A DNA stretch of 64,000 nucleotides from an uncultured Planctomycetales bacterium (GTDB lineage Bacteria; Omnitrophota; Gorgyraeia; Zapsychrales; JANLHA01), in assembly GCA_964474085.1 (NCBI GenBank), contig CAYYRJ010000009.1:13570-77569 (forward strand), given 5' to 3'. Each line of letters begins with the position of its first letter. Position 1 is the stretch's first letter. Positions 1 to 64,000 of the stretch are shown here, in pieces. The notes under the pieces were generated by a model. That model was not told the origin of the DNA. It made no database searches and saw nothing but the letters and a program-made list of their open reading frames with translations. Made by a program: the position numbers and the translations under genes.

Positions 1-144
1 AATGATCCGCTCAAACCCTTGTTGCTTTAAATACCGCAGAATTTTGTTTAAAAACGGCTCATCCCCGACGGTCGCCATTGTTTTTTGCGCCTGACCGATT
101 GTTGAACGCAGTCGTGTGCCCAAGCCACCACAAAGAATAACCAT
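1..144 (-). CDS. Sugar-1-phosphate nucleotidyltransferase, N-terminal fragment (HddC/ManC-like); gene continues past the window start
   Basis: My translation of the minus strand from ATG at 142-144 gives MVILCGGLGTRLRSTIGQAQKTMATVGDEPFLNKILRYLKQQGFERII, the G-x-G-T-R-L pyrophosphorylase loop. Not in the ORF track because it is under 60 aa inside the window. An alternative in-frame ATG at 163-165 lies inside the family-1 repeat. Confidence 0.5.
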   Translation of the reverse strand, partial: MVILCGGLGTRLRSTIGQAQKTMATVGDEPFLNKILRYLKQQGFERII

Positions 145-162
145 GTCCGTTTTTGACAAGTC

Positions 163-360
163 CATTTAACCCAAATTTTGCATTACAACCTAGCGCGCGA
201 CGATCCGTCGCGCACAAAAAGAAAAGTGCAAAATTTGCCTCCGGTTGTCCCACAGGGACAAGGTTAACCCCGCACGTCTCGACGTTGTCGAGACATGCGG
301 CCCTTTGGGCGGATTTTGCTTTGGCCAAGCAGGAGCTTGGCTAATGCAAAATCCGGGTTT
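163..360. repeat. Family-1 structured repeat, copy A (about 198 nt)
   Basis: About 89% identical to the reverse complement of 15462-15690. Carries hairpins gcgcgacg/cgtcgcgc, ttgtccc/gggacaa and cgcacgtctcgac/gtcgagacatgcg, a nested stem cggattttgc...gccaagc-agga-gcttggc...gcaaaatccg, and complementary 5' and 3' ends. Confidence 0.8.
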
Positions 361-1357
361 AAGAAACCAATCCTGTGTTAGGTTGATAAAAAATAATTTG
401 GCTGCCTAAAGTTTCAAATTTAAATGGGATTTCGAGCAGATTTTTAAGCCGCTGACGAATTTTAGGCTGCAGCTCTGGGGCCGCAAATATTAAAACAAAT
501 CCGCCGCCGCCGGCGCCCAAAAGTTTTCCGCCCAAAGCCCCCGCATCTTTTGCTGTATTATAAATCTCGTCGATATGAGGTGTTGAAATTTTCTCCGAAA
601 GACTACGCTTTAATTGCCACGACTCATCAAGCAACTTTCCAAAGTCCAGAATATCGCCGCTTTTAAGGACAGCGAGCGCGTGTGTTGTTAAACCATAAAT
701 TTCATTAAGCTCCTTAACCTTGCTGGGAGTATTTTTAATCTGATGCGCCGCAATCTCGGACGCCGTGCGCGAGAATCCGGTAAAAAACATCATCAAATGC
801 GACTGTAACTCTTTGAGTCTTTCTGACCCGACGGTAACAAGCCGTACCTGAAGATGATTCGGGCCCCCAAACTCAATAAAATTAAACCCTCCGTACGCGG
901 CCAAAGTCTGGTCTTGGCAGCCGACATTCTCTTTGATCAAATCTTGTTCAATATGAATCGCTTCACGGGCCAATTGTTCCTTCGTCGGCATAATTCCTTT
1001 AAGCGCGTAAAGGCCGTTTAAAAGCCCGACGGTAAAAGAAGAACTCGAGCCTAAACCTGTTCGCGCCGGCAAATCCCCGTCATGATGAATTTCAATGCCG
1101 TCGTGAATATTTAAAAATTTCAAGACTTCGCGCACTGAAGGATGATCAATATCTTCGACTTTCTGCACATGTTCGGTCACCGAATAAATAATACGCGATT
1201 TATGCTCAAAAAACGGAGGCAAATAGCGGCAGGTAATATAACAATATTTGTCAATCGTCGTCGCTAAAACAGCGCCTTTGTGTTCTTGATACCACGCCGG
1301 ATAATCCGTTCCGCCGCCAAAAAACGACACGCGAAAGGGTGTACGAGAAATGATCAT
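359..1357 (-). CDS. GHMP-family sugar kinase, probably D-glycero-D-manno-heptose 7-phosphate kinase (HddA-like)
   Basis: PARTGLGSSSS ATP-binding motif and C-terminal GGKLLGAGGGGF glycine loop typical of GHMP kinases. Sits next to the HddC-like fragment. Confidence 0.65.
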   Translation of the reverse strand: MIISRTPFRVSFFGGGTDYPAWYQEHKGAVLATTIDKYCYITCRYLPPFFEHKSRIIYSVTEHVQKVEDIDHPSVREVLKFLNIHDGIEIHHDGDLPARTGLGSSSSFTVGLLNGLYALKGIMPTKEQLAREAIHIEQDLIKENVGCQDQTLAAYGGFNFIEFGGPNHLQVRLVTVGSERLKELQSHLMMFFTGFSRTASEIAAHQIKNTPSKVKELNEIYGLTTHALAVLKSGDILDFGKLLDESWQLKRSLSEKISTPHIDEIYNTAKDAGALGGKLLGAGGGGFVLIFAAPELQPKIRQRLKNLLEIPFKFETLGSQIIFYQPNTGLVS

Positions 1358-3842: not shown

Positions 3843-3955
3843 TCGCTATAAGCCCTTCGGCTCAAAGGAACGGTCCCTGGTTGATGTCCCGCCTAACGGC
3901 GGGAGAAAATCAGGGCTGCGTTCAATTCGCCTTTAGGCTTATAGCAAACCAAGCA
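3843..3955. repeat. Family-4 structured repeat, copy a
   Basis: Conserved core cgaattgaacgcagccc.gattttctcccgccgttaggcggga..atc.acc.gggaccgttc..ttgagcc, shared with 63901-64000 in reverse complement. Closing stem gctataagcc/ggcttatagc is unique to this copy. Confidence 0.75.
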
Positions 3956-12823: not shown

Positions 12824-12842
12824 GTCCCGTCCTATATTATCA

Positions 12843-12923
12843 GCCGATGCAGTCGTCCTTTTAAGGCGAATAGCGCCATAGAGGCGCCAAGCAATTGAGC
12901 CGAAAAAGGACGATTGCGTCGGC
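12843..12923. repeat. Family-2 structured repeat, copy a
   Basis: Core ttttaaggcgaatagcgccatagaggcgccaagcaattgagccgaaaaa enclosed by a roughly 21-bp stem gccgatgcagtcgtccttttt / aaaaaggacgattgcgtcggc with two G-T mismatches. Confidence 0.8.
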
Positions 12924-12936
12924 TAAACAATCATCT

Positions 12937-13060
12937 AGAGCGGCCCTTTGGGCCCTACGGTTTTGCGTAGGCCAAGCAGAAGCTTGGCTAATGCAAAATC
13001 CGGGTTGATTCTAACCTAAACGACAGGGGCTTTCAAGCTGATTAACCCGGATTTTGCATT
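12937..13060. repeat. Partial family-1 copy (3' module) with its own closing inverted repeat
   Basis: gcggccctttgggc...ggccaagcagaagcttggctaatgcaaaatccgggtt matches the 3' third of family 1. It is followed by aacccggattttgcatta, the exact complement of taatgcaaaatccgggtt. Confidence 0.7.
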
Positions 13061-13094
13061 AAAAAATGAAATACAAAATTTGGGATTAAAGCGA

Positions 13095-14117: not shown

Positions 14118-15419
14118 CTATGCCTCTTTGGCAAAAACAACCTGATTGCGGCCGGATGCCTTGGCCTCATAAAGCGCCGCGTCCGCTTTCTGGACAAGAT
14201 CTTCTTTGGTATGCGCATCAACGGGGAAAGACGCAACTCCCAGAGAAACCGTAATGTTCGTTTTTTCGCGGCGCAAAATAATCGTTTGTGCCGCAATTCG
14301 TTTGCGGACCTCTTCAGCCAATTGGCCAGCTCTTCGCTTGGAACAATCCGGCAAAAGCACGCAAAACTCTTCCCCGCCATAACGGCAAACAATTTCTCCC
14401 GGCGCGCTAAACATATCCAAAAGAATAAGCGCAATGGTCTTAAGGACAATGTCCCCGGCGGTATGCCCAAAGCGATCATTGTATTTTTTAAAATAATCCA
14501 AATCGATCATCAGAAAAGACAACTGGCTTTCACTTCGCAAATGCCGGCTGATTTCAGCGTTTAACCGCTCAAGCAAATGCCGGCGCAAATACAAACCCGT
14601 CAAACTATCGCGGATCGCCAAATCCTCAACACGTTCATAAAGCTGCGCATTTTCTAAAGCGACCGCGCCAATGGCCCCGACCGTATTTAAAAAACGCAAA
14701 TCTTCCGTCGAAAAATGATGCTCGCTGTTACTATCGACCCGCAGCAATCCTACCGTCATTTCTCCGACGGACAATGGGACACTCATCAGGGAACGCACGT
14801 CCCGATGGTCCTGCGTTTGGACCTGCTGGGCATCAAAACGAAAATCGGTCTTTGTGTCTTCGATAAAAAGCGGTTTTAAGTTTTTGACCACCCATTGATC
14901 ATAGCTATCGCCTCTTTTGGCCTTGAGATTTAACGGCTCTTGATTGCGCAAGGACGCACCGATAGCCAGCTGGCGGTTGTTATTATTAAAAAAATAGACA
15001 ATAACCGTCATCTGCGGGTGTTTATAAACGCCATTAACTTCACTGGCAATCATTTGAGCGGTATCCGCAAGCGTAAAAGAGGCGCAGAGTTTTTCGGTCA
15101 GATTTTTTAGCAAGGCATAATTCGTAATCTTAATTTGCAAAGCATTATTAGCTTGCCGTTTCTGGACAATGTCCGCCTGCAAAAGATTAAGCCGCTCTTC
15201 GCATTCGCCGCGCTCTAAAGCAACAAGCATTTGACGGTTTGACAGAGAAATATACGAATAGACAAGATACCCGACGATAATCGATAAAGAAAATGCCAGA
15301 AAAATAAAAAACCGGGAGGCAAAATACCCTGCATAAAAAAAGAATCCAACGAGCGAAAACAACAACAGAATTATAAAAAAATGGGGTGATTGAGCGATTC
15401 GGCAAATTAATTTTTTCAT
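14118..15419 (-). CDS. Membrane-anchored GAF-GGDEF diguanylate cyclase
   Basis: Two N-terminal TM helices, a GAF-like middle region, and the RYGGEEFCVLLPDC GGDEF motif. Confidence 0.8.
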   Translation of the reverse strand: MKKLICRIAQSPHFFIILLLFSLVGFFFYAGYFASRFFIFLAFSLSIIVGYLVYSYISLSNRQMLVALERGECEERLNLLQADIVQKRQANNALQIKITNYALLKNLTEKLCASFTLADTAQMIASEVNGVYKHPQMTVIVYFFNNNNRQLAIGASLRNQEPLNLKAKRGDSYDQWVVKNLKPLFIEDTKTDFRFDAQQVQTQDHRDVRSLMSVPLSVGEMTVGLLRVDSNSEHHFSTEDLRFLNTVGAIGAVALENAQLYERVEDLAIRDSLTGLYLRRHLLERLNAEISRHLRSESQLSFLMIDLDYFKKYNDRFGHTAGDIVLKTIALILLDMFSAPGEIVCRYGGEEFCVLLPDCSKRRAGQLAEEVRKRIAAQTIILRREKTNITVSLGVASFPVDAHTKEDLVQKADAALYEAKASGRNQVVFAKEA

Positions 15420-15461: not shown

Positions 15462-15690
15462 ATAAGGTTTAAAAAAAGACCCGTATTTTAACCCGGCTTT
15501 TGCATTAGCCTCGCTCCAACGAGGCCAAGCAAAAGCCGCCCAAAGGGCCGCATGTCTCGACACCGTCGAGACGTGCGGGGTTAACCTTGTCCCTGCGGGA
15601 CAACCAAAGGCAAATTTTGCATTTCCATTTTTGTGCGCGACGGATCGTCGCGCACAAGGTTGTAATGCAAAATTTGGGTTTAAGAGCGAG
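15462..15690. repeat. Family-1 structured repeat, copy B (inverted relative to copy A)
   Basis: Its reverse complement aligns to 163-360 at about 89%. Substitutions in the nested stem are compensatory: cggCttttgc/gcaaaaGccg versus cggAttttgc/gcaaaaTccg, and gcctcg/cgaggc versus gccaagc/gcttggc. Confidence 0.8.
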
Positions 15691-15698
15691 ATTAAAAA

Positions 15699-16802
15699 TC
15701 AGACAATCGTGTTTTCGGTCTTCTTGTCAAAAAAGTGGGCCTTGCTCATGTCCAGGACAAGGTCCATGTCGCGGTTAATTTCAGGACGGTCATGTGCATC
15801 AACGCGGGCAATAAAAGTATGTCGGCCGGTATTTAAATGAACCAGCACCTCAGAACCCATCGGCTCGACAACCTCGCAGGTGGCCACAATCGTATTTTCG
15901 GCCGTCGCCTGGGAAACAAAAAGCTTATCGTAAATATCCTGCGCCCGGATGCCAAAAACAATTTCTTTTCCTTCATAAGCGCTTATCTTTTTATACATAT
16001 CCTCGACGATCTTAACCTGAAACCGGCCTTCGTCAAAATAATATTTCCCGTCTTTGCTAATAATCCGGCCTTCCATAAAATTCATGGGGACTGACCCGAT
16101 AAAGCCCGCAACAAATTTATTCGCCGGCCGATCATAAGTAACAATCGGGTCAGCACATTGCAAAATCCGTCCGTCTTTCATCACCGCAATCCGATCGCCT
16201 AAGGTCATGGCTTCCGTCTGGTCATGCGTGACATAAATAAAAGTTGTTTGCAGCCGCAGACGCAGCTTATGAATCTCACTGCGCATTTGCACGCGCATTT
16301 TAGCGTCAAGATTGCTCAAAGGTTCGTCAAAAAGAAACACGCAAGGTTTTCGTACGATCGCGCGGCCTAAAGCCACCCGCTGATGTTCCCCGCCGGAAAT
16401 CTCACGCGGACGACGGTCCAAATATTTTTTAATTCCAAGGATCTCTGCAACTTCGTTGACCCGTCGGGTAATTTCTGCTTTCGGCAATTTACGAAGCTTA
16501 AGACCAAAAGCCATGTTTTCAAAAACCGTCATGTGCGGATAAAGCGCGTAATTCTGAAAGACCATGGCAATATTACGGTCTTTAGGGGGGACGTGATTAA
16601 CACAGCGATCACCGATCCAAATCTCGCCGGATGTCGCTTGTTCTAAACCGGCAATCATTCGCAAGGTCGTGGACTTGCCGCAACCTGAGGGGCCGACTAA
16701 AACCAAAAATTCTTTTTTTTCAATCGTAAAACTGACATTGTCGACGGCCAGAGATCCGCTGGGATAAAGCTTGCTGACATTCTTTAGACTGATCTGCACC
16801 AT
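15699..16802 (-). CDS. ABC transporter ATP-binding protein, MalK/UgpC/MsmK-like sugar-import ATPase
   Basis: Walker A GPSGCGKST, signature ISGGEHQRVAL, Walker B FLFDEPLSNLD, and a C-terminal TOBE-like domain. No adjacent permease or SBP. Confidence 0.85.
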   Translation of the reverse strand: MVQISLKNVSKLYPSGSLAVDNVSFTIEKKEFLVLVGPSGCGKSTTLRMIAGLEQATSGEIWIGDRCVNHVPPKDRNIAMVFQNYALYPHMTVFENMAFGLKLRKLPKAEITRRVNEVAEILGIKKYLDRRPREISGGEHQRVALGRAIVRKPCVFLFDEPLSNLDAKMRVQMRSEIHKLRLRLQTTFIYVTHDQTEAMTLGDRIAVMKDGRILQCADPIVTYDRPANKFVAGFIGSVPMNFMEGRIISKDGKYYFDEGRFQVKIVEDMYKKISAYEGKEIVFGIRAQDIYDKLFVSQATAENTIVATCEVVEPMGSEVLVHLNTGRHTFIARVDAHDRPEINRDMDLVLDMSKAHFFDKKTENTIV

Positions 16803-22629: not shown

Positions 22630-22729
22630 TTCTCCTGAACTTGCCGCTTTGGGCATCCCTTTTTCGGCTCAATTGTTTGGCGCCTCTATGGCGCAATTCG
22701 CCTTAAAAGGGCTGCCCAAATCAGCAAGC
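22630..22729. repeat. Family-2 structured repeat, copy b (reverse orientation)
   Basis: Core ggctcaattgtttggcgcctctatggcgcaattcgcctt inside a stem cttgccgctttgggcatccctttt / aaaagggctgcccaaatcagcaag with 3 mismatches. Confidence 0.8.
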
Positions 22730-31831: not shown

Positions 31832-31940
31832 GTGCAAATTTTATTTACTGACTTGAGAAGTCCTTTTAAGGCGAATGGCGCCATAGAGGCGCAAAACAAT
31901 TGAGCCTAAAAGGACTTCCCAAGTCGGCTTAACTTGCACA
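31831..31940. repeat. Family-2 structured repeat, copy c
   Basis: Core ttttaaggcgaatggcgccatagaggcgcaaaacaattgagcctaaaa inside stem gacttgagaagtcctttt / aaaaggacttcccaagtc, extended by tgtgcaa...ttgcaca. Spans from the hflX ATG (31831) to the miaA stop. Confidence 0.8.
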
Positions 31941-34980: not shown

Positions 34981-35114
34981 TGATCTTTTGTCGGTTGTTA
35001 ACAAAGCCTTCGTCGCTCGAACAGTCCTCGCTCTAGTCGCTTACTCTTATTGAAAACTTTAGGTAAGCGCCTAGGCTGCGGAACTCGCTTTGGAAGGCAT
35101 TGTTAACAACCGAC
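34981..35114. repeat. Family-3 long-hairpin repeat, copy a (subfamily 1)
   Basis: Arms ccttcgtcgctcgaacagtcctcgc and ggctgcggaactcgctttggaagg flank an inner stem gtcgcttac/gtaagcgcc. Outer stem tcggttgttaacaa/ttgttaacaaccga is unique to this copy. Confidence 0.8.
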
Positions 35115-35119
35115 CAGAT

Positions 35120-38914: not shown

Positions 38915-39030
38915 AATGGCGGTTAGGGATGAGCTTCCAAAGCGAGTTCCGCAGCCTAGGCGCTTACCTAAAGCTCTCAATAAGGGTAAGCGACTAGTGC
39001 GAGGACTGTTTGAGCGACGAAGGTCACTCC
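38915..39030. repeat. Family-3 long-hairpin repeat, copy b (subfamily 1, reverse orientation)
   Basis: Core nearly identical to copy a in reverse complement. Unique outer stem aatggcggttagg/cctaaccgccat. Confidence 0.8.
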
Positions 39031-39045
39031 TAACCGCCATCGCAA

Positions 39046-40307: not shown

Positions 40308-40390
40308 TCCGTAAATTACTGATTAAGGAAGTCCTTTTTAGGCTCAATTGTTTCGCGCCTCTATGGCGCTATTCGCCTTAAAAGGACTTC
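40308..40390. repeat. Family-2 structured repeat, copy d (reverse orientation)
   Basis: Core ggctcaattgtttcgcgcctctatggcgctattcgcctt inside a perfect 20-bp stem ctgattaaggaagtccttttt / aaaaggacttccttaatcag. Confidence 0.85.
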
Positions 40391-40434
40391 CTTAATCAGC
40401 TTAAACCTTACCTTATCAATTCATCGTTTTAAAT

Positions 40435-41995: not shown

Positions 41996-42123
41996 GAGGC
42001 TATTGCGGTAACCTTCGTCGCTCGAACAGTCCTCGCGCACACCGCTTACTCTAAATTTAAAAGACAAACAGGTAAGCGGCGTGGCTGCGGAACTCGCTTG
42101 GGAAGGTCACCGCAACAGCCTCG
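41996..42123. repeat. Family-3 long-hairpin repeat, copy c (subfamily 2)
   Basis: Same conserved arms. Inner stem is cacaccgcttac/gtaagcggcgtg. Unique outer stem gaggctattgcggtaacc/ggtcaccgcaacagcctc. Confidence 0.8.
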
Positions 42124-42138
42124 CAATTAAAAATTCCC

Positions 42139-44943: not shown

Positions 44944-44952
44944 ATTAATTTC

Positions 44953-45084
44953 GAGTGGTTGTTAAAGTATCCTTCCTAAGCGAGTTCCGCAGCCACGCCG
45001 CTTACCTGTATGCCTTTAAAATTCAGAGCAAGTGGCGTGCGCGAGGACTGTTTGAGCTAAGGAAGGATGCTTTAACAGCCACTC
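44953..45084. repeat. Family-3 long-hairpin repeat, copy d (subfamily 2, reverse orientation)
   Basis: Conserved arms in reverse complement. Unique outer stem gtggttgttaaagtatccttcc/ggaaggatgctttaacagccac, about 22 bp with two T/C differences. Confidence 0.8.
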
Positions 45085-63900: not shown

Positions 63901-64000
63901 GGGTAAGTCCGAACGGCGAATTGAACGCAGCCCCGATTTTCTCCCGCCGTTAGGCGGGAATCTACCGGGGACCGTTCATTGAGCCGGCAGGACTTGCCCT
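63901..64000. repeat. Family-4 structured repeat, copy b (reverse orientation relative to copy a; reaches the window edge)
   Basis: Core matches the reverse complement of 3843-3955. Closing stem gggtaagtcc/ggacttgccc. The internal stem ccccg/cgggg replaces ccctg/caggg of copy a, a compensatory change. Confidence 0.75.

Follow-up and report, generated by a model that had tools for sequence, protein, structure and literature searches.

Bacterial miniature inverted-repeat transposable elements (MITEs), such as Correia of Neisseria, RUP of Streptococcus pneumoniae, ERIC, and Nezha, are non-coding, measure 100 to 400 bp, and carry terminal repeats and short target duplications. Repetitive extragenic palindromic (REP) elements lack target duplications and are associated with Y1 transposases of the REP-associated tyrosine transposase (RAYT) type. 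According to ISfinder, IS1380-family insertion sequences produce direct target repeats of 4 to 5 bp and have ends beginning with CC, and piggyBac combines CCC...GGG ends with a TTAA target. Here, we analyze a 64-kb stretch of DNA from a Candidatus Omnitrophota bacterium (contig CAYYRJ010000009.1, positions 13,570 to 77,569; hereafter, the window) and a multi-hairpin repeat within it, Family-1, for which a preliminary description had proposed a structured non-coding RNA (ncRNA) or a cruciform DNA site. We conclude with high confidence that Family-1 is a MITE, that is, a non-coding, non-autonomous DNA transposon of 187 to 189 bp that is tied to an IS1380-family insertion sequence. Elements of this kind are ordinary, and no new RNA gene is involved, though compensatory changes do keep the hairpins paired.

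Like the bacterial MITEs named above, Family-1 has many intergenic copies, folds strongly, shows insertion polymorphism among strains, and is frequently sited just downstream of genes. Unlike them, it takes its ends from an IS1380-family clade, its target is the 5-bp TTNAA rather than TA, its interior consists of five separate hairpins with fold-back ends instead of one long palindrome, and its host is Candidatus Omnitrophota; our literature search found neither this terminal repeat nor IS1380-derived MITEs in Omnitrophota, and it turned up nothing specific on MITEs of this phylum in general. As with IS1380, IS942, and ISEcp1, the elements that share its ends make 5-bp duplications, have ends that begin with CC, and show a family-level transposase match, whereas the window element carries no transposase. 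REP elements and bacterial interspersed mosaic elements (BIMEs) of enterobacteria and pseudomonads likewise form intergenic mosaics of small palindromes, single or arrayed, with stems conserved by compensatory changes, but Family-1 has DDE-type terminal repeats and 5-bp duplications. It is reminiscent of piggyBac in its CCC...GGG ends, in its TT(N)AA target, and in the match of a partner transposase model to the piggyBac structure 6x67; unlike piggyBac, it duplicates 5 bp rather than 4 bp and has a prokaryotic host, the best structural match of the partner is Tn5 transposase, and this IS1380 clade is not known to share the hairpin intermediate and seamless excision of piggyBac. IS1380 transposases have been treated as distant prokaryotic relatives of piggyBac (PMC10140906, PMC10813416). 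The main points of note in Family-1 are its fold-back architecture, its maintained stems, the 17-nt ends found across phyla, and the piggyBac-like features of its ends and target.

Copies, target duplications, and empty sites

The window contains two full copies of Family-1 (A and B), one truncated copy (C), and one mini-MITE, and six further full copies lie beyond it, in two other metagenome-assembled genomes (MAGs). The terminal-repeat pattern matches the window six times, against 0.22 matches expected. The copies and their target-site duplications are listed below; loci outside the window are designated by L and a number.

165–169: left target-site duplication of copy A, TTTAA; the identical pentamer stands at 358–362, and it is single in the empty sites L245 and L240
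170–357, plus strand: MITE copy A, 188 bp, delimited by its terminal repeats, target duplication, and empty site
358–362: right target-site duplication of copy A, TTTAA; includes the kinase stop codon (TTA at 359–361, read on the minus strand)
12940–13004, plus strand: truncated copy C, 3′ modules only (small hairpin, internal repeat, inner hairpin, and right terminal repeat)
13041–13045 and 13085–13089: duplication of the mini-MITE, ATTAA
13046–13084, minus strand: 39-bp mini-MITE, two terminal repeats with a 10-nt spacer
15487–15491: target-site duplication of copy B, TTTAA on the plus strand
15492–15678, minus strand: MITE copy B, 187 bp
15679–15683: second target-site duplication of copy B, TTTAA on the plus strand; single, as TTAAA, in the empty site L253

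Copy A is located between a gene for a heptose-phosphate-type GHMP kinase (359–1357, minus strand) and a gene for a nucleoside triphosphate (NTP)-transferase (start at 146, minus strand). The window reads GTTTCT-TAAA(188-bp MITE)TTAAA-TGGACTTG at this point, whereas the empty site in L245 (MAG CAZWOH01, kinase 98% identical) reads GTTTCC-TAAAT-GGACTTG, and the junction is the same, without a gap, in L240, whose kinase is 100% identical. Copy A is also missing from L246 and L247, which are more distantly related; the insertion is shared by contigs L241 and L242, and contig L243 terminates within the element. Copy B lies between an ABC-transporter ATPase gene (15699–16802, minus strand) and a GAF-GGDEF gene (14118–15419, minus strand), where the window reads CTCGCTC-TTAAA(187-bp MITE)TTAAA-ATACGGG and the empty site in L253 (MAG CAYNSM01, ATPase 98% identical) reads CTCGCTT-TTAAA-ATACGGG; in the orientation of the element itself, the duplication of copy B is TTAAA. 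The empty sites for both copies (L245 and L240 for A, L253 for B) hold one pentamer and no other change. Since these precise insertions are polymorphic among very close relatives, the element has been mobile recently. Family-1 can thus serve as a marker of recent mobility, being present or absent between strains with 98 to 100% identical flanking proteins, and it is a likely cause of contig breaks in MAGs, as in L243.

Short elements related to Family-1 show the same kind of insertion elsewhere, with duplications such as CTAAA (L105), TTCAT (L106), and TTTAT (L001). Among the matches listed, 67 distinct short elements (≤450 bp) include 38 with a perfect 5-bp duplication and 19 with one mismatch, while control pentamers taken at a 7-nt offset match in only 2 of 93 cases. 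The consensus of the duplication is TTNAA, with counts of T37, T39, N, A39, and A36.

Both copies reported in the preliminary description exist, with an identity of 90.4% (169/187, with one indel and 18 substitutions) rather than about 89%. Their boundaries are sharper than first drawn, copy B spanning 15492–15678 instead of 15462–15690. What had been counted as a third copy comes down to the 3′ fragment at 12940–13004, followed by the 39-bp mini-element at 13046–13084. Within the window, the hairpins at 195–213, 245–261, and 271–299 are confined to copies A and B, the small hairpin (300–310) and the inner hairpin (324–341) recur only in truncated copy C, and no internal module was found outside the Family-1 copies. 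The parts of the element, numbered on copy A, are as follows.

170–185, plus strand: left terminal inverted repeat, CCCAAATTTTGCATTA
195–213, plus strand: GC-rich hairpin GCGCGACG-ATC-CGTCGCGC, deleted in copy L017
227–237, plus strand: internal inverted copy of the left terminal repeat, TGCAAAATTTG; pairs with 172–182
245–261, plus strand: hairpin TTGTCCC-aca-GGGACAA; L106 and L096 have TTGCGG-ttta-CCGCAA instead
271–299, plus strand: 13-pair hairpin CGCACGTCTCGAC-gtt-GTCGAGACATGCG; a C.A mismatch in it is invariant and corresponds to G.U on the opposite strand
300–310, plus strand: small hairpin GCCC-ttt-GGGC, kept by distant relatives as GCGGCCCTTYGGGC
311–319, plus strand: internal inverted copy of the right terminal repeat, GGATTTTGC; pairs with 346–354
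324–341, plus strand: inner hairpin GCCAAGC-agga-GCTTGGC, enclosed by the 311–319/346–354 pairing; double changes at three positions among copies
342–357, plus strand: right terminal inverted repeat, TAATGCAAAATCCGGG

Each element therefore holds four segments that resemble an end repeat, two terminal and two internal. These explain both the recurrence of tgcaaaat and the alternative, mutually exclusive pairings (end to end or internal) that were seen earlier; likewise, the pairing between the 5′ and 3′ ends is real, and the strands involved are the terminal inverted repeats of a transposon. The internal copies resemble their own neighboring end, being AA-type on the left and GG-type on the right, and their outermost triplet has decayed (GGG to GCC and CCC to GGC). 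The left internal copy still terminates in GGG in the relatives L177 and L116, and the right module occurs on its own in L088 (50 bp) and L001. Fold-back ends are present in 24 of 66 related short elements across phyla, among the matches listed, and in these the internal copy changes in step with the variant that the terminal repeat has at positions 4 and 5 (GG, AA, AG, or GA); in Family-1, such joint changes of the internal right-repeat copy (311–319) and the terminal repeat are seen in copy B and L105. The interior is a chain of palindromes, in which each terminal repeat stands beside its own internal inverted copy and pairs with it, and the element as a whole resembles two mini-MITEs with decayed inner ends. 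We infer that the element arose as two mini-MITEs flanking three captured GC-rich hairpins and that it is now mobilized via its outer ends only.

At the site of copy A, relatives without the element (L245, 3490–3510) have the kinase stop and the NTP-transferase start adjacent, as TAA-ATG. In the window (144–362), the insertion duplicated the stop-codon pentamer and parted the genes by 193 bp with very stable structure, and translation of the gene downstream may be affected. A second site of interest is the intergenic nest of repeats at 12824–13094, which comprises truncated copy C, the mini-MITE with its ATTAA duplications, and a copy of a second repeat family (12855–12911; see below). This arrangement is 100% identical in the MAG contig CAYNSM010000032 (L095), though that MAG is without copy B.

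Candidate IS1380-family partner elements

A scan for the terminal repeat covered species-representative genomes and Joint Genome Institute (JGI) metagenomes and yielded more than 230 loci among the matches listed. The ends of copies A and B match those of complete elements of 1.39 to 1.49 kb (L169, L186, L206, L223, L248, L251, and about 20 further loci); the IS1380-family end sequences matched by the left repeat of copy A read CCCGGATTTTGCATTAG or CCCAAATTTTGCAATAG. At 26 of the loci listed, the repeat bounds or adjoins a gene for a protein of 436 to 447 aa. These proteins score 240 to 261 bits against the NCBIfam model NF033539, "IS1380 family transposase" (cut-off, 180), and 167 to 184 bits against Pfam PF13701 (DDE_Tnp_1_4; cut-off, 34.7). 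Scores above the thresholds of the family models, 5-bp direct repeats, and ends starting with CC place the partner element in the IS1380 family, and the transposases of the end-sharing elements are about 29% identical to those of ISEcp1 and ISEnca1. Family-1, for its part, has the size of a MITE, no transposase gene, terminal repeats, a duplication of fixed length, a cognate autonomous element, and empty sites.

The complete full-length element L248 comes from a Candidatus Omnitrophota MAG, and L034, from another Omnitrophota MAG, starts with a transposase C terminus that is followed by the terminal repeat. In the Aliarcobacter cibarius plasmid pACIB, which has seven transposase matches, the element examined measures 1470 bp, has the ends CCCGCATTATGCAATAG, and is flanked by the duplication ATAAT/ATAAT. 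A perfect duplication likewise flanks the full-length element in the well-assembled record of L251 (ATAAT/ATAAT), and L169 has TTCAA/TTCAA. Campylobacterota, Bacteroidota, Verrucomicrobiota, and Omnitrophota all contain elements of 100 to 400 bp that end in this way, and many unrelated MITE interiors in these phyla are bounded by a near-identical 17-nt repeat (L007, L010, L021, L025, L039, L047, L058, L061, L068, L113, and others). The transposases that go with this repeat share only about 50% identity, so that conservation is stronger in the ends than in the protein. At least four phyla harbor members of this very widespread set of MITEs and insertion sequences, whose 17-nt ends are nearly identical. 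The central-hairpin pattern gave no match in the metagenome scan, which indicates that the internal modules are confined to a narrow lineage; the terminal-repeat scan of viral contigs also gave no match.

Family-1 shares only its 16- to 17-nt ends with the full-length insertion sequences, and its derivation from them by internal deletion was ruled out on this ground. In many full-length copies from soil-metagenome loci (L186, L223, L136, L151, L175, L202, and others), the sequence just outside the ends, GGGTT-NN-AACGG(T/C)TT, is conserved too, and in L186 the sequence beyond the ends forms an inverted repeat between the two sides. Possible readings of this outer sequence are a longer terminal repeat in that subgroup, a repeated palindromic target into which the elements inserted, and a collapse of the assemblies.

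The structure model of an Omnitrophota partner transposase, P0160 (predicted local distance difference test [pLDDT] score, 79; predicted template modeling [pTM] score, 0.81), gave Tn5 transposase as its best match in a fold search (E, 6e-10), as well as the piggyBac transposase strand-transfer complex 6x67 (E, 2e-6). When the PDB was searched by sequence for relatives of this transposase, no meaningful match emerged, so that the likeness to piggyBac comes from the fold search only. This Tn5/piggyBac-like fold suggests mobilization in trans and cut-and-paste chemistry. The 16-nt terminal repeats would be bound and cleaved by a DDE transposase that a full-length IS1380-family element elsewhere in the genome or population provides in trans; the enzyme would stagger its cut by 5 bp at an A/T-rich TTNAA and join the CCC...GGG ends to it, and gap repair would duplicate the target pentamer. 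Copies A and B are recent insertions into intergenic operon junctions of this Candidatus Omnitrophota bacterium, whose assignment follows the source names given for close homologues of two flanking proteins. The CCC...GGG termini and TTNAA target resemble those of the eukaryotic piggyBac and may be of interest for studies of how that superfamily originated.

Maintained stems and the alternatives to a plain MITE

The pairing of the stems was examined in an alignment of eight full-length copies from three genomes (A and B of the window; L085, L105, and L106 of one MAG; L024, L096, and L017 of another), a sample that gives limited power to the covariation and orientation statistics. Nine of the 18 substitutions between A and B fall in unpaired columns, six make up three compensatory pairs (alignment columns 150/189, 164/175, and 165/174), two give Watson-Crick pairing in place of a mismatch or wobble, and one replaces C-G with U.G; no pair is broken. 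The compensatory change from cggAttttgc/gcaaaaTccg to cggCttttgc/gcaaaaGccg had been read correctly in the preliminary description, as had the three other hairpins, where A and B differ only in loops or closing positions. The three covarying pairs claimed for the inner hairpin are actually two double changes and one wobble. Among all eight copies, 96.3% of the pair cells hold standard pairs. Double changes affect six pairs, or eight after correction of the register of the 245–261 hairpin in L106 and L096. The covariation score was reached by none of 500 column shuffles, slid registers lower the paired fraction to 24 to 44%, and variable columns are rarer among paired (26/124) than among unpaired (24/65) positions (Fisher p = 0.024). 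The fold is very stable on both strands, with z-scores of −10.3 (plus) and −9.9 (minus), and 0 of 200 shuffles were as stable. Two of the double changes, in copy B and L105, involve the right terminal repeat and its internal partner, which means that pairing is tracked even where the transposase-binding sequence changes. The variants of hairpin 245–261 and those of hairpin 324–341 are found in all four combinations, which points to recombination between copies or to recurrent change.

Do these stems identify an RNA? The earlier proposal that maintained pairing implies a functional folded nucleic acid stands insofar as the stems are kept and the fold, as DNA or RNA, may well matter to the element; the reading of the copies as paralogous genes for a new structured ncRNA, with a five-hairpin fold under selection, found no support and is in our estimate very unlikely. 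The stable fold (z of about −10), the double changes at eight stem positions, the lack of a broken pair between A and B, the paucity of variable paired columns, and a possible orientation bias relative to upstream genes (10/12, discussed below) would all suit such a gene. However, the terminal repeats shared with IS1380-family elements, the 5-bp duplications, and the precise empty sites show origin by transposition. Moreover, no promoter- or terminator-like site was found inside the element, and Rfam gave no match for the whole window at the gathering score and none for positions 100–420 at E ≤ 1. Both strands fold equally well, and mismatch positions (G.T and A.C) that would be wobble pairs number six for the plus strand and three for the minus strand, with no strand asymmetry. 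A and B are opposite in orientation, each inside a string of minus-strand genes, and since these strings are co-directional, each copy is probably cotranscribed with its operon. Most tests thus gave no sign of a strand-specific constraint at the RNA level, the orientation tally being the one weak hint.

This hint bears on another possibility, that the host has co-opted the MITE and that hairpins placed after stop codons act on the RNA in one orientation, as a 3′-end stabilizer, a processing site, or a spacer between translationally coupled genes. The upstream gene's stop codon often lies directly against a copy or is duplicated by it, the copies' compensatory changes conserve the stems, and the invariant C.A mismatch and the AA/GG difference between the ends become G.U pairs in the transcribed orientation that predominates, with the GG-type end toward the upstream gene in 10 of 12 informative contexts with co-directional flanking genes (L001, L024, L085, L096, L105, L106, L120, L146/L159, and window copies A and C, opposed by window copy B and L233). 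The sample is nevertheless small, with 12 hand-tallied contexts and several partial elements, and copy B is oriented oppositely. Since the TTNAA target contains TAA or TGA, placement beside stop codons needs no selection. The presence/absence polymorphism among near-identical strains speaks for recent, probably neutral insertions, and the element has no terminator-like site; on balance, we regard co-option as improbable. Inspection of L085 by eye suggests that an open reading frame of the adjoining strand extends into the terminal repeat and may end at the TAG of CATTAG. A REP/BIME-type mosaic of palindromes, spread by a RAYT acting on single-stranded hairpins, would account for the intergenic array of short palindromes whose modules occur alone or combined, and the four combinations of two hairpin variants suggest cassette-like exchange. 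Yet the elements here have terminal repeats shared with DDE elements and 5-bp duplications at insertions verified by empty sites, whereas REPs have neither, and the end-sharing elements encode IS1380-family DDE proteins instead of Y1 transposases, which makes this explanation extremely unlikely. A clustered regularly interspaced short palindromic repeats (CRISPR) array was ruled out by the lack of regular spacing.

Insertion as an IS1380-dependent MITE remains our preferred explanation, and several observations weigh against it or against its simplest form. No transposase of the IS1380 clade is found within the 64-kb window (tblastn with three cognate transposases); the other Omnitrophota MAGs described above suggest a trans-acting partner in the source organism. 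On short metagenome contigs, the flanking pentamers of full-length copies match in just 1 of 22 cases, a scarcity that we tentatively attribute to collapsed assembly of multicopy 1.4-kb repeats. Finally, a plain selfish MITE by itself predicts neither the eight compensatory stem positions nor the apparent bias in orientation of the GG-type end toward the upstream stop codon, and there may be an additional constraint on structure. The stems may be kept up by selection on transposition or on host tolerance, by effects that the inserted element has at the RNA level, or by palindrome-templated correction as the DNA replicates, a process established in E. coli genetics. It is also conceivable, albeit with a rather low probability, that the hairpin array is no passenger, either because the IS1380 clade needs fold-back ends for transposition or because the array acts as an orientation-dependent RNA structure after stop codons. 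Either form of a functional array would account for the 10:2 orientation bias as well as for the compensatory changes, and Family-1 would then belong to a MITE lineage selected for structure as well as ends. For annotation, apparently covarying multi-hairpin repeats of uncultured lineages, Omnitrophota among them, can turn out to be transposon copies, and terminal repeats, target duplications, and empty sites should be checked before the label of ncRNA is given.

Other repeats in the window

A second repeat family has copies at 12855–12911 (plus strand), 22655–22727 (minus), 31845–31915 (plus), and 40328–40400 (minus). They share a conserved core of about 50 nt, CCTTTTAAGGCGAATnGCGCCATAGAGGCGC..CAATTGAGCCnAAAAAGG, and at least three of the four have arms of 6 to 17 nt that differ from copy to copy and are mutually complementary, e.g., GATTAAGGAAGTCC...GGACTTCCTTAATC. 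This is unlike the usual pattern of terminal repeats plus a duplication; the family could have inserted into hairpin loops, or it could be a structured RNA whose closing stem varies. For this family, an Rfam search at E ≤ 5 gave only sub-threshold, hairpin-like matches.

The third family, with copies at 34995–35115 (plus), 38920–39040 (minus), 42000–42125 (plus), and 44950–45070 (minus), has a core of about 90 to 100 nt, CCTTCGTCGCTCGAACAGTCCTCGC...GGCTGCGGAACTCGCTTnGGAAGG, and copy-specific complementary outer arms in at least three of its four copies, e.g., GGTTGTTAACAA/TTGTTAACAACC. Its copies form inverted pairs that enclose blocks of genes, one of 3.8 kb and one of 2.8 kb. A further inverted pair, 3887–3937 and 63909–63959, stands at opposite ends of the window; its repeat of about 51 nt extends to about 75 nt, is 94% complementary, and holds the hairpin CCCGCCTAACGGCGGG.

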